DNA from: an uncultured Oscillospiraceae bacterium
Lineage (GTDB): Bacteria > Bacillota > Clostridia > Acetivibrionales > DTU013
DNA: 64,000 bases
NCBI GenBank assembly: GCA_964512095.1
Contig: CAZEIH010000001.1
Coordinates: forward strand, 126,091 to 190,090
Direction: 5' to 3'
The stretch's first letter is position 1. Every line of letters starts with the position of its first letter. This document shows positions 7,081 to 37,899 of this stretch, piece by piece. The notes below the pieces were generated by a model. The model was not told the origin of the DNA and did no database searches. It saw nothing but the letters and a program-made list of their open reading frames with translations. Both the position numbers and the translations under genes were made by a program.

Positions 7081-8557
7081 GATACCCCTCCTCCACTAAC
7101 GCTGCTTTCTTTATTTGTGTCTTCAGAAGACGCTGACCTCTATAGGTCGGCGATGAATGAAGACGAATATATGTATAAACCACACTGGTAGATATATAGC
7201 CCCATATCACACAAATACTCTTAAGCTTTACTTGATATGGCAGTCCCATCATAGCTGACAAAAGAATTGCTAGAATTATTGATGCAACGAAAAAGCAACT
7301 ACTGAGGACAGCTACCCTGGTAACTTGTGTATTTCCCTGAAAGAATTGATAGATACCTATATGAAACCCAGGGATTCCAATAATGATAGCAAGAAAGAAG
7401 AGTACATTTGTTAGCTTTTCTGATATTTCGTACTCAAGCTGAGTATGACTCTTAAGAACATTCAGCTCCTGATTATACTCATATATTTTGCTATCTATTA
7501 AATCCTCATAATACTTAGTATCAATTAGATCATCATGTAAATACTCCTGTGGTATATACAAATCAAATCTCACAGCAAGAATGACCACCACTACTAGCAA
7601 AAGACCAACTAGAGTTTTTATTAATTGTATAGCCAACAGGCGCTTGTTTCCGGAAATGATATCGGATAAATAATTACTTGCTGTCATTGCTTTAATAGTC
7701 TTAAATGTGTTAACCAATGTTCTTTTTATATATGAAACTATGAGTAATACGGTTATAATCCCTATTATTAACAAAATAATCTCAGGCTTTTGCTTAAGCA
7801 TTGTCATATTCTTATTAAAATCAGATATAACATAATTTGGTGCCCATTTTCCTATTGAATAAAGTGCATCACTAACCATATTTTCATTTTCACCTACTAG
7901 AATTTCTGTATCAGTTTTTATAAAAATAGTATCAATCAGTATGCCTTTATCAATCTCCATTAATGTGTTAGCAGGAATGTATATGCTACTCAAGCCATCA
8001 CTTGAGAGCCTTTCAATGATATTCTCATTGCTTCGGTCATCAAGAATCTTGTACTTTTCATACACGCCTACCACTTCAAAGTCTTTGTCGTAAAGTTTAA
8101 CCTCCTGCCCCACAACGTCAGTGCTGTTAAATATCTCCAATGCCAAATTTGCATCTAAAACTACCACATATTTGAGCTCCTCTCCCTTATAGCTAAAGAG
8201 GCTTCCAGATACCATGTCAATATTAACAAAGTTCTTATAATAAGGATTTACACCATATACCTTTGTGTAATAATTTCGGTTGTCTTTTTCTATAGCTGCA
8301 TTAGTTAATGCATAATACCCGATTTCCTCTGTCTCAAGCTCTTCCTCAAGATTTTCTATGTCCCGGGACGAAAAGAGAAGGGCAGGCGTTTTATTTTTAG
8401 CTGTAACACTAGCTTTGCTCATCCCATTGAACCCATTCATATTTAGAATCGCATTGCTTATATTGATATTGATTAATATCGCAGCTACAAGGACGGCTAT
8501 CCCCAGGAATATGAGCAGTATCGGTAACTTTTTCATTCCAGGATTCCTCTCATTCAT
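7070..8557 (-). CDS. Membrane permease, MacB/FtsX-like (tentative)
   Basis: 495 aa: N-terminal TM, a large extracytoplasmic domain, then C-terminal TM bundles. Its start overlaps the HlyD-like gene by 4 nt. The last ~30 codons run through a 46-bp palindromic repeat. Confidence 0.5.
   Translation of the reverse strand: MNERNPGMKKLPILLIFLGIAVLVAAILININISNAILNMNGFNGMSKASVTAKNKTPALLFSSRDIENLEEELETEEIGYYALTNAAIEKDNRNYYTKVYGVNPYYKNFVNIDMVSGSLFSYKGEELKYVVVLDANLALEIFNSTDVVGQEVKLYDKDFEVVGVYEKYKILDDRSNENIIERLSSDGLSSIYIPANTLMEIDKGILIDTIFIKTDTEILVGENENMVSDALYSIGKWAPNYVISDFNKNMTMLKQKPEIILLIIGIITVLLIVSYIKRTLVNTFKTIKAMTASNYLSDIISGNKRLLAIQLIKTLVGLLLVVVVILAVRFDLYIPQEYLHDDLIDTKYYEDLIDSKIYEYNQELNVLKSHTQLEYEISEKLTNVLFFLAIIIGIPGFHIGIYQFFQGNTQVTRVAVLSSCFFVASIILAILLSAMMGLPYQVKLKSICVIWGYISTSVVYTYIRLHSSPTYRGQRLLKTQIKKAALVEEGYHAL
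7119..7164. repeat. 46-bp palindromic element, copy A (GTCTTCA...TGAAGAC outer stem, inner stem CGCTGACC/GGTCGGCG)
   Basis: 41 of 46 positions identical to 9942-9987 by manual alignment. Internal dyad symmetry. Confidence 0.7.
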
Positions 8558-15263: not shown

Positions 15264-15660
15264 TATTGTACACTTCCAATCTTTTTATAAATCTCTTTTT
15301 CCCATTAATTTTTTAATGTTATTGGTCCACTCACTTGCTTTCCTGCAAAAGCACTAGGTATGGAGTCCCCTGGCCAAGATATTTCATATTTGGTAATGAT
15401 TAGAGCCGAATCGAAAGTAAGAGTCGCGCCTAAACTATCTTTTCAAACCTTGTATTAATTTGCATACCCGCCCTGTTAAGATTGTCTTCAGATACATAGA
15501 GCTTTATAGACTCAGCAACGCTTTAGACAATTGTTATTGGCTATCATAATAATACATAATCACGTATAAACTTTCAACCTTTTACTAGGAATGCCCTGGT
15601 TTACTAAAACAACTCGCCTCTTTTGGACTTTCACCACAGACTGATGGTATGCCCGACACA

Positions 15661-15695
15661 CCAAAAGCCGGAACAGCTCATTTTGCTGTTCCGGC
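15661..15695 (-). terminator. Rho-independent terminator downstream of the spoIIID 3' segment
   Basis: Stem GCCGGAACAGC / GCTGTTCCGGC (15667-15695), followed on the minus strand by TTTTGG. Confidence 0.65.
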
Positions 15696-15730
15696 TCATT
15701 ACCAGGGCTATATTGGTACAACATCTCCAT

Positions 15731-15886
15731 TTATACCGCTTTTGAGTTGCTCCCCTGATATTTTGCTTTTGTTGCTTCCCCTCCCCTGATATGCCTTTCT
15801 GCTTTGTTTTCCTCCAGAATGACCCTCACGTCTTCAGCAAGCTCAGGGCTCACCCTTAGCAATCGTTCCGTTACATCCTTGTGCAC
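15731..15886 (-). CDS. spoIIID: spoIIID 3' segment (C-terminal 49 codons plus stop) of a split gene
   Basis: Encodes VHKDVTERLLRVSPELAEDVRVILEENKAERHIRGGEATKAKYQGSNSKAV*, colinear with the C-terminal half of SpoIIID (KSTVHKD...RGG.GGE motif region). The upstream part of the 95-aa track ORF is element DNA. Confidence 0.85.
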   Translation of the reverse strand: MHKDVTERLLRVSPELAEDVRVILEENKAERHIRGGEATKAKYQGSNSKAV

Positions 15887-17489
15887 GGTTGTCAGTATCG
15901 GCGACGCTATTTTCAACAGGCGACATGAGGAATGTTCCCGACAAAAGAATAGGGAAGTTAAGGCCTTCCACGTCCTCGCTGATGTTGAAATAAACGTAGA
16001 TCTCATCCACAGACACAATTTTAATCTCTTTGATTATTTTCTTTAAGTCAGCATTCTCAATGCTTTCAGTAAAACTAAATTTATCAAAAATCTCAATAAA
16101 CTGCTTTAGACTCTCCCTGATCTGACGATTCAGTTCTCTGGTCTTGTCGGTGCTATCCAGCTTGAATGATAACCTTTCAATTTCGGCATTGATGGGAACC
16201 ATATCCTGCTTCGCTTCATCCATGGTAATAAGACCATTCACAGCCAATTCCTTTAGCCTGTCACGTTTGCTATGCAACTCACTTAGGTCTGCTTTCGCCT
16301 CATCAAGATCAATGCCATTGTTATCCCTGATATACTCCCTGATTAAACTATTGCACTTGCGCTCAACCTCATCAAAGAAAGATACTTTTCCCTCTACCAG
16401 ATAACTAAAAAGACTGTCCAATCCTTCTTTAAGCCAATCTTCATTTATTCTGGTGTATTCAGATTCGCAGCGGTTTTTGCCATAGGCACTTCTTTTAGAG
16501 CATGTCCACCAAACATACAACGGGCCATCTTTAGAGTGCCTTCTTTGATAACGCCTGTAAGAAAAACCGCATGAACCGCATTTAATTAAGTTGGAAAATA
16601 AATGCTTATTGCTCCTGCGTGAAAATATGTCTTGATAGAGTTCAGCGTTTTTCTTCGTCTGTTCCAGAGCCTTATAAAATTGCTCATCAGATATGATTCT
16701 AAACTCCGGTCTGTCCACCACATACCACTCTTCTTCCGGGTTTTCCTTGCGCTTGTTGGTAAATATATCTGTACTGCTCTCTTTGCCATTGATGACTTGG
16801 CCAATATATATTTCATTTCTCAAAATATTACCCACCGTGTTTTGCGACCAATTATAGTTGGGCTGTCCGTCTTTCAGTTTTTTGGTCTGCACTCGGTTCT
16901 CAAATAAATAGGAAGCGATTCTTGCCATGCCCCATTCTTCTTCCGTATATAAGTCGAAAATTTTCTTGACCCATTCGCTTTCTTCAGGGTTAGGCTCTAA
17001 ATTATATGCATCTATCCTATCATAGCCAAAGACGAAATTAGGCACACGGCCTTTTTCTTTGCCGAATTGCTTTCCAAACTTCACTTTTTCTGAGATGCGC
17101 TGGGATTCACTTTCAGCCAGCATAGCCATAAGATTTAAAGTGAAACCATCAATATCCTTGCCTTCGCCCATATTGACAAGATGCAGATTCACTCCATACA
17201 AGCTCAATTCTCTAGTAACGGTGATAAAATCAAGTGTGTTTCTAAAAAGCCTGCTGATATCTTTAACATAGAGCTTTTCAAATTCTCCACGCTTGGCGGC
17301 TTTTCTCAATCGCTGCAAATCTTTTCTGTTTTGCATCTTTGTAGCAGACTTGCCCTTATCACAATAAATCGCTACTAGTTCATCTCCCCTTTTGGGAATA
17401 TAGCTTTCAAAAAACTCACGCTGATTTTCCAGCGAGCTTTGTTGTTCTTCTTTATCTGTACTAACCCTAATATAAGCGACAGCCTTCAT
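15843..17489 (-). CDS. Large serine recombinase (rec1)
   Basis: 548 aa. N-terminal resolvase catalytic motif AVAYIRVSTDKEEQ, a recombinase domain, and a Cys-rich zinc-ribbon (CGSCGFSYRR...WWTCSKR...C). RBS GAGAGGTG. The ORF reads across attL into host DNA. Confidence 0.9.
   Translation of the reverse strand: MKAVAYIRVSTDKEEQQSSLENQREFFESYIPKRGDELVAIYCDKGKSATKMQNRKDLQRLRKAAKRGEFEKLYVKDISRLFRNTLDFITVTRELSLYGVNLHLVNMGEGKDIDGFTLNLMAMLAESESQRISEKVKFGKQFGKEKGRVPNFVFGYDRIDAYNLEPNPEESEWVKKIFDLYTEEEWGMARIASYLFENRVQTKKLKDGQPNYNWSQNTVGNILRNEIYIGQVINGKESSTDIFTNKRKENPEEEWYVVDRPEFRIISDEQFYKALEQTKKNAELYQDIFSRRSNKHLFSNLIKCGSCGFSYRRYQRRHSKDGPLYVWWTCSKRSAYGKNRCESEYTRINEDWLKEGLDSLFSYLVEGKVSFFDEVERKCNSLIREYIRDNNGIDLDEAKADLSELHSKRDRLKELAVNGLITMDEAKQDMVPINAEIERLSFKLDSTDKTRELNRQIRESLKQFIEIFDKFSFTESIENADLKKIIKEIKIVSVDEIYVYFNISEDVEGLNFPILLSGTFLMSPVENSVADTDNRAQGCNGTIAKGEP
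15880..15886. other. attL core: left copy of the 7-bp direct repeat TGTGCAC
   Basis: Identical heptamer at 38024-38030. It lies exactly at the point where SpoIIID-like coding breaks off. Confidence 0.75.
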
Positions 17490-17534
17490 ACGGATTCACC
17501 TCTCTGTCATATCTCCTATATATTTAATGGTTCT

Positions 17535-17563
17535 ATTATAACGAAATGAATTTTTTTGGTCAA
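17535..17563 (-). promoter_or_regulatory. Near-consensus sigma-A-type promoter for rec1: TTGACC, 17-nt spacer, TATAAT
   Basis: Minus-strand TTGACC at 17563-17558 and TATAAT at 17540-17535, with a 17-nt spacer. About 45 nt upstream of the rec1 ATG. Confidence 0.55.
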
Positions 17564-17564
17564 G

Positions 17565-17599
17565 AAATGAAAACAGGGCAGCTTATGCGCTGTCCTGTT
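17565..17599 (-). terminator. Hairpin plus T-rich tract between the small ORFs and the rec1 promoter
   Basis: Stem AACAGGACAGC / GCTGCCCTGTT (17572-17599), followed on the minus strand by TTTCATTTC. Confidence 0.5.
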
Positions 17600-17750
17600 C
17601 TGTGTATGTACTATCGGTTGAGTTAATGGATTTTATCGCCGCCGCTACGATGCTTTTGGCAACCCCTTGAGACAGTGCATCTAAAATATAACTTAGGATA
17701 GCGGGATCCAGGTTGCTTATTTCACTTTTTTTCTCTAACACCCCTTGCAC
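17583..17750 (-). CDS. Small ORF (55 aa, GTG start), candidate accessory or directionality factor
   Basis: VQGVLEKKSEISNLDPAILSYILDALSQGVAKSIVAAAIKSINSTDSTYTEQDSA. RBS GGGGGTGAG. A similar small ORF lies upstream of rec2. Below the ORF-track size cutoff. Confidence 0.4.
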   Translation of the reverse strand: MQGVLEKKSEISNLDPAILSYILDALSQGVAKSIVAAAIKSINSTDSTYTEQDSA

Positions 17751-17860
17751 TATCTCACCCCCTTTGACCCTGTCCTCTTGCTAATGTATATTGCGGCTTG
17801 GGTGGTTTTATTCCCCTTATTTGGGCGAGCTGTATCTTTGTAAATAAATGGATTTTCCAT
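17750..17860 (-). CDS. Small basic ORF (36 aa)
   Basis: MENPFIYKDTARPNKGNKTTQAAIYISKRTGSKGVR. Strong RBS GGGAGGAAAACT before the ATG. Its stop overlaps the next GTG start (TAGTG). Confidence 0.35.
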   Translation of the reverse strand: MENPFIYKDTARPNKGNKTTQAAIYISKRTGSKGVR

Positions 17861-18015
17861 AGTTTTCCTCCCTATTCGGTTATCTACTATGAAATATCCA
17901 CACGCTCTGTCGCTTAGATTCGGCTAAAACCACCCATGATTAGACCGCCATACATACACGATTAGATGGCTAAATGACGTTCTGCAACAATTCCTAGAAC
18001 ACCAACGACCAAATT

Positions 18016-18394
18016 TTATCCCCCGGCACAACACTTCACAGATAGCAGTTTCCCATTGGCCATCATAAACACTTCAGGATATTTGAACATTTCCAGATAC
18101 TTGCTGGCCAACTCATCTGTAAGACCTTTAAAAATTTTCGCTATCTGGCCTTGCCAAGCAGATAAAGAACGTGCCTGCTATGATTTCATATAAATCGCCC
18201 TTGTCATCGGCAAGTCTCCTGTTTAAGTCCAGCCCATTTATTTTTCCTTCCTCGTTACACACAATTGCTACATGGTCAGCAAAAGGATAGATCGCCTCAA
18301 TATAGCCACCTACAACCTTTTGCATGGCCTTAAGCCCCGAATCTATCTGCCTAATCTCTGCCACCTTGTTTGGCTCTACATAAACCACTTTCAC
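18016..18394 (-). pseudogene. DUF3846-like gene, frameshifted
   Basis: GTG start at 18394 with RBS AGGAGGGG. VKVVYVEPNKVAEIRQIDSGL...AGTFFICLARPDSENF stops at 18128. The expected C-terminus KGLTDELASKYLEMFKYPEVF... continues in the +1 frame to 18016. The shift lies in an A/T homopolymer run. Confidence 0.55.
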
Positions 18395-18618
18395 ATAACC
18401 CCTCCTATACCGACAGCTTACATATTTATCCACCAACTTTAGAACCCCTTGGGTCACTTTGGGTCAACATTGGCACCAAATCCATACCTAATCCTTAGAA
18501 CCACCCTAAACCCCTTTTAAAACCCCTTGGGTCAACCCTGGACACTACTCAAACCATACTTGCGACAACCGACAACCTCCATATTCGCAAAATACATTTT
18601 CCTCGGTTGCGATATGTA

Positions 18619-19194
18619 TCACATCTGATTTTTAAGAATCTCCAAGCAAAGCGGGTCTATGTCGCTTTCTTGGATTCTAGTAACTTTGAGCACCATCCGA
18701 TCAATCCCAGAATCAACAATGGAATAATAACTGCCGTTAAAACAGTACCCGGTGCCGTCAAAAATAATATGGGGGATATCCATACAGCTCAAAACCTCGG
18801 ATAAACTGTCACAATTATCCGTGATGGGGAAGAAGTCTCCAATGTCGTCAAATTCAAATTCCGGCTCTTTTTCCTTTGCTGGCTGATCGGAATCATCGTC
18901 ACCGCAGTATAATTCACCAATATGCTCGTCTGCATAGAGTTGATTATTCCGCTCACTTTTGATGAAACGGTTTACCATCTCTTCCATCTGGGATATTTGA
19001 TATGCTATATCGCTGGCCAGCTTTTGATCATCCAAGCTAAACCTTGTATAGTCAAACACATATCCTTTTCCTGTAATCTGATTTAATATTTTCGCACATA
19101 GAATTAAATCTCTGTTATAGTTCTTCATATGGCTATTAACCATATTTTTGATTGCTACTTCAATTGTTTTCTGCTTCTCGATCATGCAGCACAC
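18619..19194 (-). CDS. Hypothetical protein (acidic middle region)
   Basis: 191-aa ORF with no recognisable domain. Its start may be the internal MIEKQK. Confidence 0.45.
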   Translation of the reverse strand: MCCMIEKQKTIEVAIKNMVNSHMKNYNRDLILCAKILNQITGKGYVFDYTRFSLDDQKLASDIAYQISQMEEMVNRFIKSERNNQLYADEHIGELYCGDDDSDQPAKEKEPEFEFDDIGDFFPITDNCDSLSEVLSCMDIPHIIFDGTGYCFNGSYYSIVDSGIDRMVLKVTRIQESDIDPLCLEILKNQM

Positions 19195-19381
19195 CCGCCT
19201 CTCTTAATTCTTTAAGTTTTCTGCCCATGGCACATTGACTGAATCCCTGCATTCTGGCTAAATCCTTGACCTTGACTCCCTCGTTGCGAAGTTTAACCAG
19301 CTCATGATTAGTCAGTTTCTTCCTGCCTGGGTCTACACCGCCAACCAATTCAATTAGGATCCTGCAAATATGATTGGTCAT
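19160..19381 (-). CDS. Small helix-turn-helix protein (sigma-70 region-4-like)
   Basis: 73 aa. LTNHELVKLRNEGVKVKDLARMQGFSQCAMGRKLKEL resembles an HTH. Confidence 0.45.
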   Translation of the reverse strand: MTNHICRILIELVGGVDPGRKKLTNHELVKLRNEGVKVKDLARMQGFSQCAMGRKLKELREAGVLHDREAENN

Positions 19382-19497
19382 TTTTCACCGTTGATTTGAT
19401 GTCAGCGATGGGGAGTTTCTATTTTTGTTTCATGTACCAGAATTTCTGTACCTTCCTTCCTCGTTCTTGAAGTAAATTGAATTTTCCATGAACTGTA

Positions 19498-19526
19498 TTG
19501 ACATTTTTACTCTAACCAGTTAGACT
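19498..19526 (+). promoter_or_regulatory. Sigma-A-type promoter for the blaI/blaR1-like operon: TTGACA, 17-nt spacer, TAGACT
   Basis: TTGACA at 19498-19503 and TAGACT at 19521-19526. Directly followed by the repeated ACTCTAT half-sites, a possible operator. Confidence 0.45.
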
Positions 19527-19566
19527 CTATGTGTACTCTATTGCATTAGAGAAAGGAGCGGTTAAT

Positions 19567-19941
19567 ATGGAAACACCTAAAGTATTTGAGAGCGAATATC
19601 GCTTTTGTCTTATTCTGTGGGAGCACGAGCCTATTGGAAGCGGCGAGCTTGTAAAGCTGTGTAAAAAGCAGCTTGACTGGAAGCCAACCACCACATATAC
19701 GGTCATCAAACGCCTTTCCGAACGTGGTATTCTGAAAAACGAAAACTCAATCGTATCTTCGTTAATTTCAAAGGATGAAGTGCAGGCTGCCGAGATCGAT
19801 GAGCTTGTGGAAAAGAAATTTGAGGGTTCTCTACCGGCTTTTATCACTGCATTTACAAAGCACCAGCAAATTTCAGATAAGGAGATCGATGAAGTACAGA
19901 AAATGATTGACCGATATAGGAAGGGGAATCGCAATGGCTGA
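19567..19941 (+). CDS. BlaI/MecI/CopY-family transcriptional repressor
   Basis: Winged-helix N-terminus (LILWEHEPIGSGELVKL...TTTYTVIKRLSERGIL) and a C-terminal dimerisation helix. RBS AAAGGAG before the ATG at 19567. Its stop overlaps the next gene start (ATGGCTGA). Confidence 0.8.
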   Translation: METPKVFESEYRFCLILWEHEPIGSGELVKLCKKQLDWKPTTTYTVIKRLSERGILKNENSIVSSLISKDEVQAAEIDELVEKKFEGSLPAFITAFTKHQQISDKEIDEVQKMIDRYRKGNRNG

Positions 19942-21796
19942 TATATTCTTGAAATTTATCAACATGAGCATATCCGCAAGCTGGCTTGTGCTTGTTGTTG
20001 TCATTCTAAGATTATTACTAAAAAAGGCACCAAAATGGCTGAACCCTGTGCTATGGGGAATCGTCGGTCTCCGGCTCATTTTGCCCTTTTCCATTGAAAG
20101 CATCCTGAGCCTGATCCCCAGTGCTGAAACAATCAGCCCGGAAATTATTTACTCTCAGGAGCCAGCAATCCATAGTGGTATTCAGGCATTAAACAGCGTG
20201 GTCAATCCCATCATTATGGAATCTTTTACCTCTAATCCTACGGCCAGTATAGATCCATTGCAAATATGGATTCCAATAGCTGCTATTGTTTGGACTGTTG
20301 GTATCGCCGCCATACTTATCTACACGATTATCAGTTATCTGCATCTGAGCAGGCTGGTAAAGACTGCTGTGTTGCTCCGGGATAATATTTATCAGAGTGA
20401 AAATGTTGTATCACCCTTTGTACTCGGCATACTGCGCCCCCACATCTATCTACCATTTAATATGAACGAGAAAGATATAGCTCATGTGATTGCTCATGAA
20501 CAAACGCACATCAAGCGGCGCGATCACTGGATTAAGCCATTTGGCTTTTTAATGCTTGCTTTGTACTGGTTCAATCCTGTGTTGTGGGTGGCGTACATAC
20601 TTCTCTGTCGGGATATTGAGCTTGCCTGTGATGAGGGAGTGATTAAAGAATTGTGTGCAGATCAGCGAGCGGATTATTCGGATGCTCTACTTTCATGCAG
20701 TGCGCCACGACGTATGATTGATGCATGTCCGCTTGCTTTCGGAGAAATTGGTGTGAAAGAGAGGGTGAAAAACGTGCTGAATTATAAAAAGCCTGCGTTC
20801 TGGCTTATTATCGTTGCTGTTGTCATCTGCATCGTCGTAGCTGTGTGCTTTCTAACAAATCCAAAGAAGGCTCCGATCTCTTTAGGCACTATTCAGATAA
20901 CTTGGGCAAATGCATTGGATATGAGATCCAACGAGCCGACATCGTACAAATTGAATGGCGCAGAGCTTGGTGAACTAAAAGACCGTCTGCGGGATTTGGA
21001 GATTGGCAGAAAAAATAATGATTATGGCGGTTTTACGCCTGTGTATTCGCTGTCAATAAAAGCGCAAGGCATGGAGCAATTCATGATTGCAAGCTACAAC
21101 AGCGACGGCACTCATGTAGGTTTGAGGTATGAGGGTGAATATTACCGCATAGAAGATAACGATTTTTCAAGATACCTCAGCAACATTTGTGCTGGGGGCA
21201 ACAGAGCTGAAGCACTCGGTAATAAAATCAAGTTGTCTCTCGATGATGTAATTATGCTTTCTCAAAAAGGTGAAGATCTTTCGTGGGAAGATTTTGAACA
21301 ATTTTCTTATGTGGAAACCGGCTCTGGCCTCTATATCCATGTTTATGAAATCAATCCTTTGTTATCACTTTGGATAGGTGGAGGCAATCTCGACAATGAG
21401 CCAATGTATATCAGCCTTTGCATCAATACGGAGCCAGAGGATGCCATAGACATTCGAACAGAAGATTTAACCGCTTTTATCAGTAAGCATAGAGATGATC
21501 TACCGGAAGCATTTATCTCCCGTATATACAGATTCAACGATTCAGAGGACTTTATAAAAACCGCTGAGGTTGTTCTTAATAAAGATGAGACTTTTACCTT
21601 TAATTTTTCGCCTATCAGCAGTTATCTCGGACATGGTACTTATAAGATCGATGGTAATAGACTGACTTTGAATACAGATGATGGATATTATACCTATGTA
21701 TTTGACATGGTAGATGATACACTTGTTTTCGATGCCGATGCTTCCTCAGAACAGGTTTGGTTTTCTGGCATAACGGATGGTTCGGTGTTCAAGTAA
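19934..21796 (+). CDS. BlaR1/MecR1-like M56 metallopeptidase signal transducer with an unrecognised C-terminal sensor domain
   Basis: N-terminal TM helices, zinc motif HEQTHIKRRDH, then a further TM and about 300 aa extracellular region with no SxxK penicillin-binding motif seen. Confidence 0.75.
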   Translation: MADIFLKFINMSISASWLVLVVVILRLLLKKAPKWLNPVLWGIVGLRLILPFSIESILSLIPSAETISPEIIYSQEPAIHSGIQALNSVVNPIIMESFTSNPTASIDPLQIWIPIAAIVWTVGIAAILIYTIISYLHLSRLVKTAVLLRDNIYQSENVVSPFVLGILRPHIYLPFNMNEKDIAHVIAHEQTHIKRRDHWIKPFGFLMLALYWFNPVLWVAYILLCRDIELACDEGVIKELCADQRADYSDALLSCSAPRRMIDACPLAFGEIGVKERVKNVLNYKKPAFWLIIVAVVICIVVAVCFLTNPKKAPISLGTIQITWANALDMRSNEPTSYKLNGAELGELKDRLRDLEIGRKNNDYGGFTPVYSLSIKAQGMEQFMIASYNSDGTHVGLRYEGEYYRIEDNDFSRYLSNICAGGNRAEALGNKIKLSLDDVIMLSQKGEDLSWEDFEQFSYVETGSGLYIHVYEINPLLSLWIGGGNLDNEPMYISLCINTEPEDAIDIRTEDLTAFISKHRDDLPEAFISRIYRFNDSEDFIKTAEVVLNKDETFTFNFSPISSYLGHGTYKIDGNRLTLNTDDGYYTYVFDMVDDTLVFDADASSEQVWFSGITDGSVFK

Positions 21797-21825
21797 GATG
21801 TATAAACAAGCAGGTATTGATGAGG

Positions 21826-22160
21826 TTCGAAAAGTCGGAACATACCGGAAGGATCTCATCATACTAGACTTTCAAAGCCTCCATACACCTGTAATGGCTG
21901 TGAGGATAAAAGATCTTGCACGTTGGAAAAGAGGGTCTACTCTGCGGTTCATGCACAAAGAGAATACGAGGCAGTCCGTTCCGAGTCTCGTCAAGGGTTA
22001 CAGCTTACAGAGGAAGAGGCTTTGAGACTAGATTCACTTATTAGCCCTCTGCTAATGAAAGGCCAGTCACTCCACCATATATGTGCAAACCATGTAGATG
22101 AGATTATGCTCAATGAACGCTCTCTTTACAACTACGTGGATGATGGCATTTTTGCAGCAC
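21826..22160 (+). pseudogene. Transposase remnant (IS30-like family, uncertain), truncated at both ends
   Basis: Encodes ...LSKPPYTCNGCEDKRSCTLEKRVYSAVHAQREYEAVRSESRQGLQLTEEEALRLDSLISPLLMKGQSLHHICANHVDEIMLNERSLYNYVDDGIFAARD and then diverges. There is no start, no DDE domain and no terminal repeats. Confidence 0.5.
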
Positions 22161-22282
22161 GAGATACCATCTACAATACGGTTTCCTGTGGAATTTACTT
22201 TTGCAAACTGGAAGTTACCTTTTCAATTGACCCTTGCGCGACAACACTTTTTACAATACCTTATAATTTTGAATACTTTCGC

Positions 22283-23632
22283 CTAATATTTTGACCGTTC
22301 CAACGCCATCCCAATAATCTTATCCGCATGATCCGCCATAAACAACGGAATATTCAGCAGGTCATCATCCATGCGCAGGTTATTCAGTGAAAAGCGAACA
22401 CGCAGCTTTACCTTATCTTCAAATTTTTCCTTGTACTTTTTAAGGCTCCGGCTTTCCACATTGCTCTCGGATTTAACCTCTACCGGCAAAATGTCATTTT
22501 CTCTTTGGATAAGAAAATCAACCTCATACCTTGGGTTATCCATTGTCCAATAACGTGGCATAGCTTCAAACTGGTTTTGTAACGCTTGCAGGACATAATT
22601 CTCACTTAAAGCCCCTTTAAACTCTACAAACAGCCTATTACCTTCACCAAATGCCGAGGGAGCTAATAGAGATAATCTACGCAATAATCCTACATCGACC
22701 ATATATAGTTTAAATGCAGACAAATCGTCATAGGCGGAAATAGGCAGCCCCGGTGCGGTGCTGCGGTATATCTTATAAGTCAAGTTGGCATCACAAAGCC
22801 ATTGCAGAGCATCTTCGTATTCCCTCGCTCTGGCTCCTTCCTTGACAACCTTATAAATAAACTTTTTATTTTCCCTTGCCAGTTGTGAAGGGATTGATTT
22901 CCATATCATTGAGATTTTCGGAAAATCCTTAGGATCAGGGTGCTTGGCAAAATCTCTTTCGTATGCGCCTAAAATATTGGATAGCACCTGCTGCATCAGC
23001 TCCACATCTCGGTCTTGCACCCAAGAGCGAACAGACTCCGGCATACCGCCTGTTACAAAATACATTTTAAGCTTTTCGTATAATGGATTGAAAAACGCCT
23101 CGGGAATCGGCTCAATCCTGTCCACGCTTTTCATATAATCAGCAAAGTTACCGTCGCCATTGGCCATTAAAAACTCCGTAAATGTCATTGGCATAATTTC
23201 TAAAAAATCCACCTTGCCAACTGGAAAAGATGCTGGCTTAGACAATGCAATGCCCAAAAGTGATCCTGCGCAGGCTACATGGTAGTGAGGCGTGTTCTCG
23301 CAGAAATACTTCAGTGTGTTCAGTGCGTTAGGGCATTCCTGTATCTCATCAAAAACAATGAGCGTGTCCTCCGGATTGTCTTGTTTGATGACTTCTCCGC
23401 TGGCCATCATCAGATTTTGCAGAATACGCTCCACATCCTTGGTGCTTTCAAAAAACTGTTTATATTCTGGATGCTCGTCAAAGTTGAAATAGGCCATATT
23501 TTCATAATGGCGTTTTGCAAATTCCTTGAGTAGCCAAGTCTTGCCCACCTGACGCACCCCTTTTAAAATAAGGGGTTTTCTATATTTGGAGTTTTTCCAG
23601 TCCAGCAGTTTTTGCATAGCCAGTCTTTCCAT
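22283..23632 (-). CDS. AAA ATPase with DUF4143-type C-terminal domain (copy 1)
   Basis: Walker A GVRQVGKT and Walker B LIVFDEIQ. The likely start is MERLAMQK (23632) after RBS GGAGGTGG. About 25 substitutions versus copy 2, by eye. Confidence 0.8.
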   Translation of the reverse strand: MERLAMQKLLDWKNSKYRKPLILKGVRQVGKTWLLKEFAKRHYENMAYFNFDEHPEYKQFFESTKDVERILQNLMMASGEVIKQDNPEDTLIVFDEIQECPNALNTLKYFCENTPHYHVACAGSLLGIALSKPASFPVGKVDFLEIMPMTFTEFLMANGDGNFADYMKSVDRIEPIPEAFFNPLYEKLKMYFVTGGMPESVRSWVQDRDVELMQQVLSNILGAYERDFAKHPDPKDFPKISMIWKSIPSQLARENKKFIYKVVKEGARAREYEDALQWLCDANLTYKIYRSTAPGLPISAYDDLSAFKLYMVDVGLLRRLSLLAPSAFGEGNRLFVEFKGALSENYVLQALQNQFEAMPRYWTMDNPRYEVDFLIQRENDILPVEVKSESNVESRSLKKYKEKFEDKVKLRVRFSLNNLRMDDDLLNIPLFMADHADKIIGMALERSKY

Positions 23633-23929
23633 ACCGCCACCTCCAAGATAACACATTATTATACAACTTTTGCGTATGATAATCACATTTATATTGATAA
23701 GTATAGCTGAAATTCAAATTCTAGTCAAGAGTAATCACACTATTATATGAAATAGATAGATAAAAATCACATAATCGTGTAATTTTACTCTATAGTCTTT
23801 AACATAACAAAACCTGCCCCGATAAACAAGGCAGGTTTTGCTTACTTTCATGTATTCTTAATTTCAGCTTTTAAGCCGCATATTCAAACACCCAATGCAA
23901 CCGACACTGACTGTTACTACTGTTTGTAC
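22295..23929. repeat. Direct repeat copy 1 (right-end module of unit 1: ATPase gene, upstream region, hairpin, att arm)
   Basis: Collinear with 36353-38030. High nucleotide identity through the ATPase gene and lower identity in the upstream region. Similarity starts at CCG(T/C)TCCA...GCCATCCCAATAATC. Confidence 0.8.
23809..23839. terminator. Symmetric hairpin AAAACCTGCC-N11-GGCAGGTTTT (bidirectional terminator-like), copy 1
   Basis: Perfect 10-bp stem flanked by an A-run and a T-run. Lies 25 nt downstream of the rec2 stop. An identical hairpin is at 37900-37930. Confidence 0.6.
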
Positions 23930-25585
23930 CGTTGTTCCTATCGGTGTCGGTGTTTTCTTGCTTTTTAATGCTCTGCCTTTTATAGTGCGTCTGACTTCTG
24001 CATCGCAGTCGCTCTCTAGTATTATAGGAAAGAACAGGCCATTAATCTCGTCATCTACTTTAAAGTATACATGCAACTCGCTTGCACTTATGACTCTGAT
24101 TTCCTTAACCACACTCCTAAGACCATTATTTGTAAGACCATCTTTAAACGAAAAACTATCAAAGTTGCGAATAAAACCTTTAACATTTTCTTTGACTTTA
24201 CGTGTGAGTTCGGCGGTCACATCCTCTGCGTGAAGTATGGTTGATATACGCTTGATGTCAGCATCTAAGGCTGCCATATCCTTCTCGCCCTCATCCATAC
24301 CAATCATACCTTTTTTCACCATAGTTTTGACACGCTCACGCTGTGCTTGTAAGTCTTTCAGTTCTTTGTTCAACTCATTAAAATTCAGCCCTGTGGCGTT
24401 TTTGAGGTACTCTTTGATTACATCACTACACTTAGCCTCAATCAGCTTAAAAAAGGCTTCACGGTCTTGCACTAAACTGTCAAATAAAAGAGTTAAGCCT
24501 CTGAGAACATCTTCTTCTTCCACTCTTATATGCTCTGCTGTACACCTTGCACTACCATAAGCCTGTCGCTTACTGCACACCCACCAATAGTAGTACGGTC
24601 CCGTCTCACTATACTTACGCTGATAGCGTCTATACCCGCCACCACAGGAGGTACACTTTAATAGGTTTGAAAGGGTGTGGTCCTCACTACGGCGTGAAAT
24701 CTTTCGATGCCCGTGTTCATCAGATGGAAATTTCTCTGCGTTCTCTTCTATAATCCGTTGTGCTTTCTCAAATTGCTCATCAGATATGATACGAAAATCA
24801 GGTCTTTCTGTAACAAACCAATCTTCTGTATCCATCGTTACGCGTTCGCCCGTATAAATGGACTTTACATTCTCCTTGTTATTTATAATAAGCCCTGTAT
24901 ATAAGCGGTTTTTTAGTATACATGAAACAGTATGTTGAGTCCAGTTATAGTTGGGTTCACCGTTCTTTTTCTTTTTTGTTACTACTCGGTTCTTATATAA
25001 GAAGTCGGCTATACGGCTCATTCCCATATGCTCTACTGTATATAAATCAAATATCTTTTTGACCCAGTAGGCATCCTTATCTGGTTTTAAAGTATATTTA
25101 TCAACACGCTCATAGCCAAAAACGAAGTTAGGCACTATCCCTTTTTTCTTACTGATGTTTTTACCGAACTTGACACGCTCACTCATTTTTTCAGACTCGT
25201 TTTCTGCCAATAAAGCCATTATACTGAGTGATAAGGAATCCACATCTTTACCTTTCTCGCCCTGACCGGCTAAGTGTAGTTTAATCCCTAACCCGTCCAA
25301 CAACTCTCTCGTAAAGGTTATATAATCGAGTTGATTTCGGAATAACCTTGATATTTCCTTTGCGTAAATCTTTTGATAACACCCTTTTTTACCATCACTT
25401 ATTAACCTCTGTAATTCCCTTCTATTTTTGGACTTAGTTGCACTCATACCCTCATCGCAGTATATTTCAACTAACTCGTCACCCCGGTCTGCTATGTATT
25501 TCTCAAAGAACTCCCGCTGGTTCTTCAGCGACAGGGCTTGTTCTTCTTTATTTGTACTAACCCTTATATACGCAACAGCCCTCAT
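23864..25585 (-). CDS. Large serine recombinase (rec2)
   Basis: 573 aa. AVAYIRVSTNKEEQ catalytic motif and a zinc-ribbon (CTSCGGGYRR...WWVCSKR...C). Roughly half the residues are identical to rec1 by eye. The ORF spans the internal attP-like site. Confidence 0.9.
   Translation of the reverse strand: MRAVAYIRVSTNKEEQALSLKNQREFFEKYIADRGDELVEIYCDEGMSATKSKNRRELQRLISDGKKGCYQKIYAKEISRLFRNQLDYITFTRELLDGLGIKLHLAGQGEKGKDVDSLSLSIMALLAENESEKMSERVKFGKNISKKKGIVPNFVFGYERVDKYTLKPDKDAYWVKKIFDLYTVEHMGMSRIADFLYKNRVVTKKKKNGEPNYNWTQHTVSCILKNRLYTGLIINNKENVKSIYTGERVTMDTEDWFVTERPDFRIISDEQFEKAQRIIEENAEKFPSDEHGHRKISRRSEDHTLSNLLKCTSCGGGYRRYQRKYSETGPYYYWWVCSKRQAYGSARCTAEHIRVEEEDVLRGLTLLFDSLVQDREAFFKLIEAKCSDVIKEYLKNATGLNFNELNKELKDLQAQRERVKTMVKKGMIGMDEGEKDMAALDADIKRISTILHAEDVTAELTRKVKENVKGFIRNFDSFSFKDGLTNNGLRSVVKEIRVISASELHVYFKVDDEINGLFFPIILESDCDAEVRRTIKGRALKSKKTPTPIGTTVQTVVTVSVGCIGCLNMRLKS
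23899..23951. other. Internal attP-like dyad site at the unit 1 / unit 2 junction
   Basis: AACCGACACTGACTGTTACTACTGTTTGTACCGTTGTTCCTATCGGTGTCGGT, with outer inverted repeat ACCGACAC/GTGTCGGT. 38 of 53 positions match the attP reconstructed from the element-side arms of attR plus attL. Confidence 0.6.
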
Positions 25586-25687
25586 AACATCAATCCTCTC
25601 CGTTACATTTGCATAATTAAAAGCACCCGATAAAACCTCACAGAGAGAATTATTTCAGATGCCTCCTGCTTGTTACAATGCATAATA

Positions 25688-25807
25688 TCACGCTGTTTCT
25701 GAGATTTGTATTGCTTCGGCCGACTCAGCCACTATCTTTCGAGCGATATTTAGTGCAAGAGTCTCTGCTATCTTTTGTAGGATGTCATCGGGTAGTTTGA
25801 CCTCCAT
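25688..25807 (-). CDS. Small ORF (39 aa from the ATG), homologous to the small ORF upstream of rec1
   Basis: MEVKLPDDILQKIAETLALNIARKIVAESAEAIQISETA. The same frame stays open upstream (…KRISIRYNANGQGVKG) with no canonical start, and that stretch resembles the 36-aa ORF of unit 1. Confidence 0.35.
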   Translation of the reverse strand: MEVKLPDDILQKIAETLALNIARKIVAESAEAIQISETA

Positions 25808-26032
25808 ACCTTTGACTCCTTGTCCATTTGCGTTATACCTTATGCTTATTCTCTTTTTAGCTTGTTTATGTTTGTTAAATTGCTTTATAGTAACCGCAGT
25901 CCTTCTTGTCTTAATGACCTGTTTGTCATTGTGCCTAACCGGCTCTAAGCTCTTTATTTATGCATAAAAATGTTGGAGAGCTAAAATTTATCTCTTTAGC
26001 CACCCCAACATTAATTATAGAACCAATATATA

Positions 26033-27397
26033 TCAGAACTTATCGCCCAGCTTGTAATCGGCGATCAGCTCCAGACGGCTGCTGCGGCCGGTTTTCTTGA
26101 AGATGTTGCCGGCATGGAATTTTACCGTACTTTCTGTGATATACAGTGCGTTGGCAATCTCTGAATTGGACATGCCCTGTATAATAAAATTGAAAATGTC
26201 CTGTTCTCTAACCGATAGTCCAAAGTGGTTTACATACTCGGTCAGCCGCCGCTTTTCCGCCGCCTCCGGGCTTGTAATGGAAATGTACAGTTTCTGATAC
26301 AGCAGGAAGAAAAGTACGGTTACAAGCATGTAAACAACACTTGAAAGCACAATGAGGGGAATGCCTGTAAGTACGTCGGCGCATAACGTTCCGACTGCCT
26401 CTCCAAGACGTCCCACCAACAAACCGAACACAGCAAGAGCCGGCATACCCATCTTGTCGGAAATGTCTGAGAAAACCAGAATACGGTGCACCGACCAGAA
26501 ACCCAAGAACAGATAGGCCAGCATCCACATAGCTGTTTCTCCGGCAGAGTTACTGCCAAGTGCCAATGCCGCAAATGGAAAAGCAAGCGCTGCCAGACAA
26601 CAGATTGCTCCCCAACGTCGGTTTCTGTCGCTGACAACTCCGGCGATAATAAGACCAACGCCATAAAATGCGCGTGTGAACTCTATATAGACACTGCCCA
26701 TTGCTCCTTTGAGCGGGAAGGAGAAGCCGAGTGTGTTTTCCATCGATAACAGCAATAGCACAACTGCGGCTAGCCAAACAGTCTTTTTTTTAAAACCGGC
26801 ATGAAAATATCGGCTTTTTTCAGCCGCAGGAGGTGATGGAAGCCAACGCAGGAGTAATAATGACACAACTGCGAGCAACACTATGGCAAAGAAGCTATTG
26901 CTATGCCACAGGAAACGTTTACCCATCGGAAGAGAAATAAGCCATGTACAAATACTGCCAAAGGCGTATGCAGAGCCAAACACCAACCCTCGGCGCTGCT
27001 GCGGAATATCCGTGGAAAGCCTCGTCAGATAGCATCCTGACAAGATTCCGATTGATATGTTGAGCAATGCACCGGCAGCAATAATAACCGCTAAAGATGG
27101 TGAAAAAAATGACGCTGCTGTGCAGATTAATGCGATTATGGTAGTCAGGAGGGGGAATAACCGACCGCCGCCAAGAGAGGAGCGTTTTGCGAAAAGCAGT
27201 CCGGCCGCGCCGATGCCGGCAGCTTGGCAGACATAGTATGCCCCGCATACCAGCAGATTCACCGTTCCTCCATCCAGCATACTGAGCATCCGGTACGCTT
27301 GTGTAATATATGCCGTACCCGTCCAAAGAAAACCAAGACCGATAAGTGCAACAAAATACGGATACCTGCTTCTTATCTGGATACCATTTTTTATCAT
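26033..27397 (-). CDS. Polytopic membrane protein fused to a C-terminal LuxR-type HTH
   Basis: About 380 aa with 10 or more hydrophobic segments, then LSVREQDIFNFIIQGMSNSEIANALYITESTVKFHAGNIFKKTG. Lies in GC-richer DNA. Confidence 0.75.
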   Translation of the reverse strand: MIKNGIQIRSRYPYFVALIGLGFLWTGTAYITQAYRMLSMLDGGTVNLLVCGAYYVCQAAGIGAAGLLFAKRSSLGGGRLFPLLTTIIALICTAASFFSPSLAVIIAAGALLNISIGILSGCYLTRLSTDIPQQRRGLVFGSAYAFGSICTWLISLPMGKRFLWHSNSFFAIVLLAVVSLLLLRWLPSPPAAEKSRYFHAGFKKKTVWLAAVVLLLLSMENTLGFSFPLKGAMGSVYIEFTRAFYGVGLIIAGVVSDRNRRWGAICCLAALAFPFAALALGSNSAGETAMWMLAYLFLGFWSVHRILVFSDISDKMGMPALAVFGLLVGRLGEAVGTLCADVLTGIPLIVLSSVVYMLVTVLFFLLYQKLYISITSPEAAEKRRLTEYVNHFGLSVREQDIFNFIIQGMSNSEIANALYITESTVKFHAGNIFKKTGRSSRLELIADYKLGDKF

Positions 27398-27617
27398 ACT
27401 TTATCTCCTGTGATTAGGATTGCAAATACAAATATTAGTCCACATATATTGACATAATTATAGCATACGCCAGCAGTAAGTATAAAGAAAAAAGTCAAAA
27501 AAGAGAGAATAAAGTCCACCTATACTAAAACTATACCGCTCTTTTAGCCCGTCTGTACCCTATCTGGACTGTCCATGCAGAAAATTGACGTTTATGCTGA
27601 TATTGGAGGTGATCGAC

Positions 27618-27944
27618 ATGACATCACTGAGACGATGTTTTGCCTATGAGAAGAACATCGTTATAAATGCCCTGTACGATACCATCGAGGCATTGGGGCT
27701 ATCTCTTGACAGCTCAAACAGCATGCGTGGCACGTTGATAGTTTCCGACACGAACCATACCGGTAAAATGCGTATCGCACTCAGCTTTGACGCAGTTAGG
27801 AAGCAAACTCAGGTAGAGATCTATCCTGTGGACTCCGGAATAAACATTACTGAAGACTGGAGTACTGTTATTTTGGATGAACTCTCGGGAAGAATGGAGT
27901 ATTTGCACCAATTCGTTCGTGAAAGCAGCAACGGGTTATATTGA
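27618..27944 (+). CDS. Hypothetical small protein
   Basis: RBS GGAGGTG before the ATG at 27618. First gene of a co-oriented cluster divergent from the LuxR gene. Confidence 0.5.
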   Translation: MTSLRRCFAYEKNIVINALYDTIEALGLSLDSSNSMRGTLIVSDTNHTGKMRIALSFDAVRKQTQVEIYPVDSGINITEDWSTVILDELSGRMEYLHQFVRESSNGLY

Positions 27945-27977
27945 ACGAAGCACTAAGATATGAGAGGTGGAGTTTAA

Positions 27978-29474
27978 ATGAAAAAAGCACAACGTATTTT
28001 AGCAGCCATATGTATAGTCTTTATCACACTTACAGCATTAACGTTTAATGTCTACGGCGCAGAGCCTTCAATGACAAACTTTGATAAAGCGCAAAGCTAC
28101 AAGCCGGGGCAGTTTCCTGATATTACCGAAAATGAATGGTTCGGCTATAATAAGCAGCGTGTTGTTTGCAAGGCGTATGAATTGGGCCTGATGCAGGGAA
28201 AGGGCACCATGTTTGACCCAAATGCCGGAGTTACCTTAGCTGAAGCAGTTACAATGGCCGCAAGATTAAATAATATCTATAGCGGCGGCGATTGGGAGTT
28301 TCACCAGAGCTCCCCATGGTATTATACATATCTGGAATATTCCGTTTATAAGGAAATAGTCCAGGTTGACACTTTTGAAGATCTGACAAGACCAGCCACC
28401 AGAGCGGAAGTGGCTTACATATTTGCCCGTGCCCTTCCCGAAGGTGAATTTGCCGCTATTAATAAAATAGATGCCTTGCCTGATGTTAATTCCGGTACAC
28501 CTTACCAGAGCGAAATCTTTAGGCTCTACAAATCGGGTATTCTTACCGGTAACGATGCATATGGCACTTTTGGACCAAATGAGACGATTACCCGCGCACA
28601 GGCAGCAGCTATCATAACGAGGATAGCCCTTCCCTCGGAAAGAGTATCATTCACTCCAGCAAAAAAGGATGAACCGGCAGATAAAAAAGAAACAGTGAGC
28701 GAAGAACCCGCCAGTGTAATACCTGTCTGGAGTGAGGTCTATACTGAGGGCATGACCGTAAAAACAAAGGATGAATTAGCTGATCTGGTCGATGCTGCAT
28801 TCTATAACCTTGTTCCGAAATTCGAAATCTTGCTCGAAAATGCCGCATACGATGAATACTTTGACGACGTTGATTTTTCGGTGAGGCATTCGAATTTAGG
28901 CTACACTAGTTCGAATTATGATTATCAAACCAAAGTGTTTAGTCAAGAAATTAAGTATCTCCTGTTTCACCAAATGAAGGCTCTCATATTCAACCGGAAA
29001 GCTATTGAACTGTATGTAACAGAGGAAATGCGTGATTATGATACAAAAATGAATGCAATACTGGACAAAATAATTAAAACTGGCATGACTGAGAAAGAAA
29101 AGGTCAAGGCCGTTCACGACTATATGGTCGTTAACTACAGATATGACGAAAATTTTGAGGTAGGCTTATACGGCACTGATACCTATGCCTTTCACGGGCT
29201 TTTGAATTACGGGACCGGCGTCTGCCAAGCATATGCGGAATTGTTCTACCTTTTTATGAGCTATGTAGATATCGAATGTATCTTTGTGGGAGGCTGGGCG
29301 GACGGCGGAACCGGCGAGTATGGACTTCATGCATGGAATGTTGTCTATGCTGACGATGGCTACTATCATGTTGATGTGACCTTTGATGACACGCTGCCTG
29401 ACTCAGGCAGCAAAATCTCATATGATTATTTCCTGAAAACAGATGATGAAATGGCAATAGATCATGATTGGTGA
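27978..29474 (+). CDS. Secreted protein with SLH-like repeats and a C-terminal transglutaminase-like cysteine protease domain
   Basis: Signal peptide. SLH-like segments (…TRAEVAYIFARAL, ITRAQAAAIITRIA). Transglutaminase core GVCQAYAELF…GLHAWNVVY…HVDVTFDD. Confidence 0.7.
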   Translation: MKKAQRILAAICIVFITLTALTFNVYGAEPSMTNFDKAQSYKPGQFPDITENEWFGYNKQRVVCKAYELGLMQGKGTMFDPNAGVTLAEAVTMAARLNNIYSGGDWEFHQSSPWYYTYLEYSVYKEIVQVDTFEDLTRPATRAEVAYIFARALPEGEFAAINKIDALPDVNSGTPYQSEIFRLYKSGILTGNDAYGTFGPNETITRAQAAAIITRIALPSERVSFTPAKKDEPADKKETVSEEPASVIPVWSEVYTEGMTVKTKDELADLVDAAFYNLVPKFEILLENAAYDEYFDDVDFSVRHSNLGYTSSNYDYQTKVFSQEIKYLLFHQMKALIFNRKAIELYVTEEMRDYDTKMNAILDKIIKTGMTEKEKVKAVHDYMVVNYRYDENFEVGLYGTDTYAFHGLLNYGTGVCQAYAELFYLFMSYVDIECIFVGGWADGGTGEYGLHAWNVVYADDGYYHVDVTFDDTLPDSGSKISYDYFLKTDDEMAIDHDW

Positions 29475-29594
29475 TGCGAGATATCCGGCGCCCAAACGAT
29501 GGTGACCGAAGAATTGAATGGTGTGATAGATAAAGCTGTCACTCAGATTCCATTGATAGTGTTGTCAAGATATTGAAAGGGGTGGATGTAATAA

Positions 29595-31244: not shown

Positions 31245-31286
31245 ATAATAGTAGTGTCAATATATTGAAAGAGGAGTGAAGTTGAA

Positions 31287-35516: not shown

Positions 35517-35589
35517 TACAACAAGGTTACATAATGTCACCGGACTTACAGGTGTCTGGTTTACTCTGAACACATATGATAACAAAAAA

Positions 35590-35628
35590 CAGCCCAAAAT
35601 CCATTACACTTGGATTTTAGGCTGTTTT
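35590..35628 (+). terminator. Rho-independent terminator after the surface-protein operon
   Basis: Stem CAGCCCAAAATCCA / TGGATTTTAGGCTG (one mismatch), followed by TTTT. Confidence 0.65.
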
Positions 35629-35688
35629 GAATTGTTTTGATAATAAACCATGGTATCAATTACTTTGTTCACTCTTTGATGTGATATA

Positions 35689-36116: not shown

Positions 36117-36343
36117 TTATATGTTCCTTTATTCTTTACATTATTTTCAGTGACTTAGAGATACTATTTGGTTTGCAACAACTTCAGATTGCCCTGTTTA
36201 GAATCTCTATTCTCATTTCTTTCAGGTATCTTTTCCATGATGTCACCAAATTGTATCATAAATTATGGTGATATTGTTTGTTCTTTGCTTAGTTAAAAGA
36301 AGTCTGATAAGCAACAAAAGCTACCACCGCTAAGAAAAAACCG

Positions 36344-37690: not shown

Positions 37691-37899
37691 ACTACCACCA
37701 CCAAAATAACACATTATTATACAAGTTTTGCGTATGATAATCACACTATATTGATATAGCATAGTCCAATTTCCAATATAAGTCAAGTCTAATCACGTTA
37801 TTATAAATAAATTGCTGCAAAAAATCACATTCTTATGTACTTCCTTGTCGATAGCCTACTCTGCATTATCGTATTTTAATCTACATCCTGCTGCAAAAC

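Follow-up and report, generated by a model that had tools for sequence, protein, structure and literature searches.

The mother-cell regulator gene spoIIID is split in this stretch of DNA (the window, 64,000 nucleotides) by a 22.1-kb insert at 15887..38023, and the genes and promoters at the edge of the insert point to a way of removing it that would call on sigma-E and not on SpoIIID. Our preferred reading, which we hold with slightly more confidence than doubt, is of a skin-like, non-phage element whose recombinase would be made constitutively, and whose excision would be set off by a small protein under sigma-E control.

On the minus strand of the window, B. subtilis SpoIIID aligns (tblastn) to 38138..38013 with its residues 1-42 and to 15892..15755 with its residues 35-80. 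The 5′ fragment of the gene (38024..38138, minus strand) has a TTG start at 38138 and carries the attL core GTGCACA at 38024..38030; the 3′ fragment (15731..15886, minus strand) carries the attR core, again GTGCACA, at 15880..15886. These 7 nt are the common core of the two sites. The insertion site is the His codon within the STVHKD recognition helix, so that the interrupted gene would yield a truncated SpoIIID without half of its helix-turn-helix and without its entire C-terminal half; no second copy of spoIIID is present within the window. Both halves are intact, and when joined in frame (...SKSTVHKDVTERL...) they encode an 87-aa product that matches the Pfam SpoIIID family (PF12116) over positions 1-80 of 82, with E=2.5e-40. 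The predicted attB is AGTAAAAGTACGGTGCACAAGGATGTAACGG, and the attB junction predicted after excision is AGTACGGTGCACAAGGATG. Relatives of the element have att arms of the form AACCGACACC.../...GGTGTCGGTT, and attL and attR show the short core with imperfect inverted repeats. As in skin-like elements, then, the coding sequence of a sporulation gene is interrupted with both halves preserved, and a serine recombinase gene lies at the element edge, adjoining the 3′ gene fragment.

The neighbours of the 5′ part of spoIIID are murA, spoIID, and a gene for an M23 (spoIIQ-like) peptidase, which are the usual surroundings of spoIIID in clostridia. Upstream of the TTG, at a distance of 170-215 nt, is a tandem pair of sigma-E-like promoters, which leaves a long leader; in B. 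subtilis, translation of spoIIID depends on a small upstream ORF. The window sequence, including rec1 (the recombinase gene at the edge) and the 55-aa ORF discussed below, recurs identically in several independent assemblies (anaerobic digesters, NCBI WGS LSQX01), and the split is therefore not an assembly artefact.

An identical 87-aa SpoIIID was found in a public protein collection, on a 992-bp Logan contig (L101). Bases 333-541 of this contig correspond to window positions 38233..38024 at 93.4% identity, and bases 535-770 to 15886..15652 at 99.2%; both matches are colinear with the flanks of the insert, and they overlap by exactly the 7-nt core. The contig is the uninterrupted locus of a close relative, with precisely the predicted junction. 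Since its left flank is 6.6% diverged from the window, we take it to come from an element-free relative and not to be an excision product; its intact SpoIIID was accordingly rejected as evidence of excision, the left flank being only 93% identical. The excised-circle junction GACAACCGTGCACACAGT was absent from the viral contigs and fetched loci, and no rec1 with an attP-type C-terminal tail occurred among its cluster members, which have host-specific tails only.

The insert consists of two related elements in tandem and not of one: element A (~15.89-23.92 kb, ~8 kb) and element B (~23.93-38.02 kb, ~14 kb). In both, a recombinase gene occupies the left edge, and the right edge holds an AAA_14/DUF4143 ATPase gene. 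In element A these are rec1 (15843..17489, minus strand; 548 aa; Pfam Resolvase, Recombinase, and Zn_ribbon_recom) and the ATPase gene at 22283..23686 (minus strand), which has 85-94% identical copies in the elements of loci L002, L004, and L007; in element B they are rec2 (23864..25585, minus strand; a large serine recombinase of 573 aa, 52% identical to rec1) and the ATPase paralogue at 36344..37786. The rec1 product has the features of a large serine recombinase, with S10 in YIRVSTD invariant, and its 3′ end crosses attR into the spoIIID 3′ fragment in a different reading frame.

Sequence at ~23.9 kb is homologous to the right end of the insert at 38.0 kb, with the GTGTCGGTT arm, a conserved terminator, and the ATPase promoter; the right ends of A and B are thus homologous, and the two arms of B are symmetric. 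Where the left arm of B meets the right arm of A (23923..23929, minus strand) there is an attP-like hybrid site with the core GTACAAA. At the outer ends, attL bears the P′ arm of B and attR the P arm of A, and because both are hybrid, repair of spoIIID may need rec2 too, or two sequential excisions; with the insert in tandem, rec1 on its own may fail to restore the gene. The circle junctions predicted for the possible pairings of arms are GACAACCGTGCACACAGTTATCAC (P_A+P′_B), ...GTGCACACAGTAGTAAC (P_A+P′_A), and AACGGTACAAACAGTTATCAC (P_B+P′_B).

Several further features of the two elements can be recorded here. The 3′ ends of rec1 and rec2 read across att junctions (15843..15905 and 23864..23935), so that the last 15-25 recombinase residues would vary with integration state. 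It is the right end of element A that encodes the rec2 tail, ...SQCRLHWVFEYAA, and a similar tail, RCRFKWIIEYVA, comes from the right end of B; tails of this kind recall the "extreme C-terminal element" of SprA. The cargo of element A includes a blaI/blaR1-type pair (Penicillinase_R repressor with Peptidase_M56 sensor; 19531..21796, plus strand), and that of element B a membrane regulator of the LuxR type together with large surface proteins that have SLH domains (27978..35516). Among the element A genes tested (Pfam, PHROGs), and in the cargo noted for element B, no phage gene was recognised. A DUF3846 gene of element A (18016..18457, minus strand) appears to be frameshifted: its ORF ends at 18128 with 87 of 103 profile positions matched, and the remainder lies in another frame, to ~18016. 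A search of 15-27 kb against Rfam (E<=0.1) gave no match.

Immediately upstream of rec1, the initial annotation had placed a promoter made up of TTGACC, a 17-nt spacer, and TATAAT, and this sigma-A-type site stands exactly where it was put (17535..17563, minus strand; TTGACC at 17563..17558, TATAAT at 17540..17535). It agrees with the consensus at 11 of 12 positions, the best match in 14-28 kb, and dinucleotide shuffling of the 130 nt upstream of rec1 produced a match that good in only 3 of 1000 cases. From the end of the -10 element to the rec1 ATG (17489) there are 45 nt, with the ribosome-binding site GAGAGGTGA between. The site has the sequence expected of a sigma-A promoter and keeps its position in relatives: a sigma-A-like promoter lies 64-92 nt before the recombinase start in the window and in eight diverged relatives, scoring 12/12 in L033 and L043, 11/12 in the window, L001, L006, L031, L036, and L090, and 10/12 in L003, each match being equalled in at most 5 of 1000 shuffles. 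Such a promoter is absent from L004, L005, L034, L040, and L059.

A second putative promoter lies further upstream. The initial annotation had proposed scanning the regions before rec1 and rec2 with clostridial sigma-E and sigma-K matrices. We built a two-block sigma-E matrix from 47 sigma-E promoters of C. difficile whose start sites have been mapped (Table S7 of PMC3789822), and sigma-K, -F, and -G matrices from the C. difficile Tables S6 and S7. Before rec1 the scan returned a sigma-E-like site at 17782..17814 (minus strand), with GGAATAAA at 17814..17807, N16, and TATACATTA at 17790..17782, and its -10 element ends 31 nt before the GTG of the 55-aa ORF. Among 127,926 positions this site ranks 7 with the window as background and 3 with that of C. 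difficile. Its sigma-E score has p=0.001; sigma-K, -F, and -G were rejected for it, at p of at least 0.3 with the C. difficile matrices. The host's own sites served as positive controls: the two sigma-E-like promoters of spoIIID (38383..38353 and 38339..38308, minus strand) rank 5 and 12-13, and the site upstream of spoIID (40499..40468) scores alongside that of the element. A second sigma-E model, built from another starting point, was discarded when its register slipped in A+T-rich sequence. Before rec2 the promoters of element B are weak or unclear, with a sigma-A match of 9/12 and a best sigma-E site that ends 54 nt from the start codon.

The upstream site fits the clostridial sigma-E pattern (-35 kmATAww, -10 (C/T)ATAnAnT, and 15-19 nt from ATA to the -10), its spacing of 18 nt lying high in the range seen in C. 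difficile. Among relatives whose recombinases are 76-79% identical, the blocks GAATAAA and AATATACATTA are invariant, and the spacer is fixed in length and variable in sequence. For 15 of 17 representatives of the family, the best sigma-E-type site in the 100 nt upstream has its end 27-37 nt from the start codon of the small ORF. By our count these stand for about 8 of 10 independent lineages, whose promoter sequences are unrelated (e.g. GAAATATT-N14-CATATATAA in L031 and GTAATATA-N14-CATAGGTAT in L036), and a rough binomial estimate by hand arithmetic puts such positional agreement at ~3e-5. Just downstream of the -10 element, around the expected start site, there is a semi-conserved GACA (GAGGACAGGG in the window, 17766..17775, minus strand; also in L003-L007) that loosely resembles the SpoIIID box known from B. 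subtilis, WWRRACAR-Y. If this element is real, one might speculate that restored SpoIIID could shut off the small ORF through it.

The gene that this promoter would serve is a 55-aa ORF (17583..17750, minus strand) with a GTG start and the ribosome-binding site GGGGGTGA, our candidate for the recombination directionality factor. The clade of the window and several diverged sub-families all have a small ORF ahead of the recombinase gene, with the motif L(P/D)xxhLxxhxxxL(A/S)xx(I/V)A(R/K)xI(V/I). Iterated HMM searches link the 55-aa ORF to the ORFs of L003-L005, L036, L043, and L031, and to a 39-aa ORF upstream of rec2 (25688..25807, minus strand; E=9.5e-7). The body of the ORF is under purifying selection (pN/pS 0.08-0.36). 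Neither the 55-aa nor the 39-aa ORF has a Pfam or PHROG match, and to our knowledge directionality factors are not recognisable by homology; the predicted role is suggested by adjacency to the recombinase, co-conservation with it, small size, and retention in elements of only 3 kb. In the human-gut cluster L016-L030 no such ORF adjoins the recombinase.

Of the "small ORFs" listed in the initial annotation, only the 55-aa ORF behaves like a gene. The other, of 36 aa (17750..17860, minus strand), overlaps the sigma-E-like promoter and was rejected as a gene, with pN/pS ~1 and a frame broken by indels; it is most likely non-coding on this evidence. One caveat attaches to this verdict, which is that 1-nt indels in relatives fuse the 36-aa frame to the small ORF, giving a 92-aa frame that is open in L001, L002, L004, L006, and P0003/4/6/7 and has the sigma-E-like motif inside it. 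GAATAAA-N16-TATACATTA might on this account be part of a 92-aa coding sequence, or else an operator or a site for a forespore or other sigma factor, and the real trigger would lie elsewhere. The -35 element GAATAAA does resemble those of forespore sigma-F/G promoters, and in L005, L056, and L059 the sigma-F/G matrices score about as well as sigma-E. We regard this account as quite improbable. In the window and in L003, L005, and L007 this frame is interrupted in differing ways, and the N-terminal extension has pN/pS ~1, against the values under 0.4 given above for the ORF body. The motif is invariant even at synonymous positions, in a stretch whose spacer codons change non-conservatively, and downstream of it a ribosome-binding site and an MGQ/MEQ start are conserved. 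Other sub-families, moreover, have different sequences at the same place that fit sigma-E as well.

Between the 55-aa ORF and rec1 lies a terminator-like hairpin with a T-rich tract (17558..17601, minus strand; hairpin 17601..17570, tract to 17558). The hairpin has 8+4 bp with one A·C mismatch, and the TAA stop of the 55-aa ORF falls in its 6-nt loop; it folds at -16.6 kcal/mol (z = -3.7), and none of 200 shuffles is as stable. Owing to the mismatch it was missed by a simple terminator scan and found by a second, purpose-made one. The tract, TTTTCATTTCTT, is interrupted and runs into the rec1 -35. Apart from the window, the same hairpin is found only in L001 and L002; L006 and L040 have other hairpins at this place, most family loci have none, and in L007 a 76-nt deletion has removed both hairpin and -35. 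As the initial annotation described, a hairpin separates the small ORF from the rec1 promoter; it is stable, yet it has a mismatch and a broken U-tract and is missing from most relatives. Being limited to close relatives, insulation would be a local refinement and not a family feature.

These imperfections bear on an alternative in which the recombinase is itself induced in development. Much as in the skin element of B. subtilis, the sigma-E-like promoter would drive the small ORF and rec1 as one operon through a leaky hairpin, and the sigma-A-like promoter would be weak, or would serve mainly for integration after transfer. Besides the mismatch, the broken U-tract, the L007 deletion, and the rarity of the terminator among relatives, it is favoured by L004 and L005, where no sigma-A-like promoter is present and the layout resembles a sigma-E operon; the small ORF of L005 shares 4 nt with the start of the recombinase gene. 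For the window we consider this arrangement unlikely, the hairpin there being strong and the near-consensus promoter being kept in position in eight diverged relatives. The family seen as a whole has two regimes in its predicted promoters, and the invariant part is the putative sigma-E-type promoter with the small ORF.

Genome and metagenome scans yielded 95 loci, in ~45 of which the spoIIID 3′ fragment abuts the 3′ end of a recombinase gene, the recombinases being 35-91% identical to rec1. The hosts are Clostridia of digesters, the human gut, and the termite gut. Where both spoIIID halves are on the contig the element measures 3.0-6.7 kb, and minimal elements of ~3 kb carry one cargo gene, the small ORF, and the recombinase; the cargo is a flavin reductase-rubredoxin fusion gene in L003 (8589..11598) and a short-chain dehydrogenase gene in L005 (8429..11603). 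The family has, by these comparisons, a portable module of putative sigma-E-like promoter, small helical ORF, in most cases a sigma-A-like promoter, and recombinase. Two loci depart from this pattern. In L090 the recombinase (at 6001) is 38% identical to rec1 and no adjoining spoIIID fragment was found; a good sigma-K-type site, GTAACACA-N12-GCATACAAT (p=0.002), stands before its upstream small ORF, and elements of this kind in other genes may respond to a sigma factor that acts later. L083 has a different arrangement, in which an apparently uninterrupted spoIIID (7427..7657; residues 4-81, one alignment) overlaps the 3′ end of a recombinase gene distantly related to rec1 (35% identical).

Between hosts, the recombinases are 78-91% identical, as compared to 37-65% for the host SpoIID and 29-59% for the M23 protein. 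So much higher a conservation of the recombinase indicates that the element moves horizontally between orders; long vertical retention of the split gene was rejected as an argument on the same ground. Such recent spread would also suit a plain insertion that inactivates spoIIID, with promoters that serve transfer and integration, no programmed excision, and sporulation confined to element-free cells. The element-free relative, the lack of a circle or attP junction in viral contigs, fetched loci, and cluster members, and the frameshifted DUF3846 gene of element A could all be accommodated in that way. We nonetheless think it distinctly unlikely: both halves of spoIIID are intact and join in frame, the same target gene has been hit in many lineages, and minimal 3-kb elements retain the small ORF and recombinase. 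A mother-cell-type promoter is conserved before the small ORF, moreover, and an element unrelated to sporulation would have no reason to keep one.

The programmed excision that we favour would proceed as follows. Large serine recombinases alone carry out attP x attB recombination, and the attL x attR reaction requires a directionality factor. Made constitutively from its own sigma-A-type promoter, and so expected in all cell types, rec1 alone would only integrate; a constitutive promoter would also suit integration after transfer into a new host. The 55-aa helical protein would be the directionality factor, confined by its sigma-E-type promoter to a mother cell with active sigma-E, and the hairpin would stop the sigma-E transcript ahead of rec1. 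With sigma-E active, the factor would switch the recombinase over to the attL x attR reaction and the insert would leave, restoring the 87-aa SpoIIID frame downstream of the host's own sigma-E-like promoters. Observed are the features in the sequence, how they score and how far they are conserved, and the precise junction; from these we infer the sigma factor for each promoter, the role of the 55-aa protein, and the timing and cell specificity of the event. That SpoIIID has no input is a matter of logic, since spoIIID itself is cut in the recognition helix and a requirement for its product would be a deadlock. The initial annotation had reasoned that, with spoIIID interrupted, the trigger must act earlier or through a separately controlled factor, and the conserved sigma-E-like promoter and small ORF lend this support in silico. 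If the scheme holds, excision would come one tier earlier than in the skin elements of B. subtilis and C. difficile.

A broader view is that of a widespread, horizontally moving family with a portable module, whose excision forms an obligatory checkpoint between sigma-E activation and SpoIIID synthesis, doubled here by the tandem; this we put forward tentatively, doubting it slightly more than we believe it. If true, a mobile element gates the second tier of the mother-cell cascade, and SpoIIID, an input to excision in both studied skin systems, would here be its output. Should the module work as proposed, it would be a programmed rearrangement one step earlier in that cascade than any described case. 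The sigma-E signal is conserved across spore formers, and the spread over gut, termite, and digester Clostridia would reflect mobile elements repeatedly plugging into it. For annotation, we caution that many metagenome-assembled genomes with a split spoIIID will have the gene recorded as absent or as a pseudogene. A compact set of recombinase, candidate factor, and att sites is now defined and can be tested.

Among known systems, the closest in layout is skinCd of C. difficile 630, in which a sigma-A promoter with an inverted repeat ahead of it gives constitutive expression of the recombinase CD1231, and the 72-aa factor CD1234, expressed from a sigma-E promoter with the help of SpoIIID, limits excision to the mother cell (PMC5025042). 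As in the window, a mother-cell regulator gene is split by an element with a large serine recombinase gene at its edge, a sigma-A promoter after an inverted repeat serves that gene, and a small acidic protein that supplies directionality and cell specificity comes from a sigma-E promoter (both promoters and the role of the small protein being predicted, by layout, for the window). The target, however, is sigK there and spoIIID here; CD1234 needs SpoIIID, which is impossible in the window; its gene is three genes from the recombinase, whereas our candidate adjoins rec1; and the window insert is a tandem of two elements. The skin element of B. subtilis likewise has its recombinase gene at the edge, by the 3′ gene fragment, and is excised in the mother cell, as predicted for the window, but its spoIVCA is sporulation-specific and requires sigma-E plus SpoIIID (PMC5025042), in contrast to the housekeeping-type promoter of rec1, for which no SpoIIID dependence is possible.

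SPbeta resembles skinCd in having a constitutive recombinase, unlike spoIVCA and the vfbin and gin recombinases, which are expressed only in sporulation (PMC5595907). Inserted in spsM of B. subtilis, it pairs the constitutive integrase SprA with the factor SprB under a sporulation sigma factor (sprA/sprB; PMC4191935, summarised in PMC5595907). The initial annotation had seen SPbeta-type logic in the rec1 promoter, and the predicted arrangement is indeed the same, with a sigma-A-type promoter that recurs in the eight diverged relatives; the integrase of SPbeta, too, has a C-terminal tail altered by integration. SPbeta differs in being an active phage in a late, non-regulatory gene. The gin element in gerE of B. 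cereus ATCC 10987, with girC/girX (PMC5595907), is likewise of non-phage type and interrupts a regulator gene of very small size; it has several serine recombinases, and its small factor lies close to the recombinase, much as here; girC, however, is sporulation-specific, and the target acts late, in the sigma-K branch.

For spoIIID itself, a skin-like element has been noted in Ruminiclostridium cellulolyticum, in one sentence (Galperin et al., bioRxiv 10.1101/2022.02.25.481979). It can be likened to ours by target gene alone, the paper giving no att sites, regulation, family, or distribution, and we found no other mention of a spoIIID-intervening element in the literature. The family, its att sites, the module, and the regulatory consequence thus appear not to have been described before. 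The combination of an intervening element, a serine recombinase, and a sigma-E-controlled factor is already known; what is new is the target, and hence the position in the cascade.
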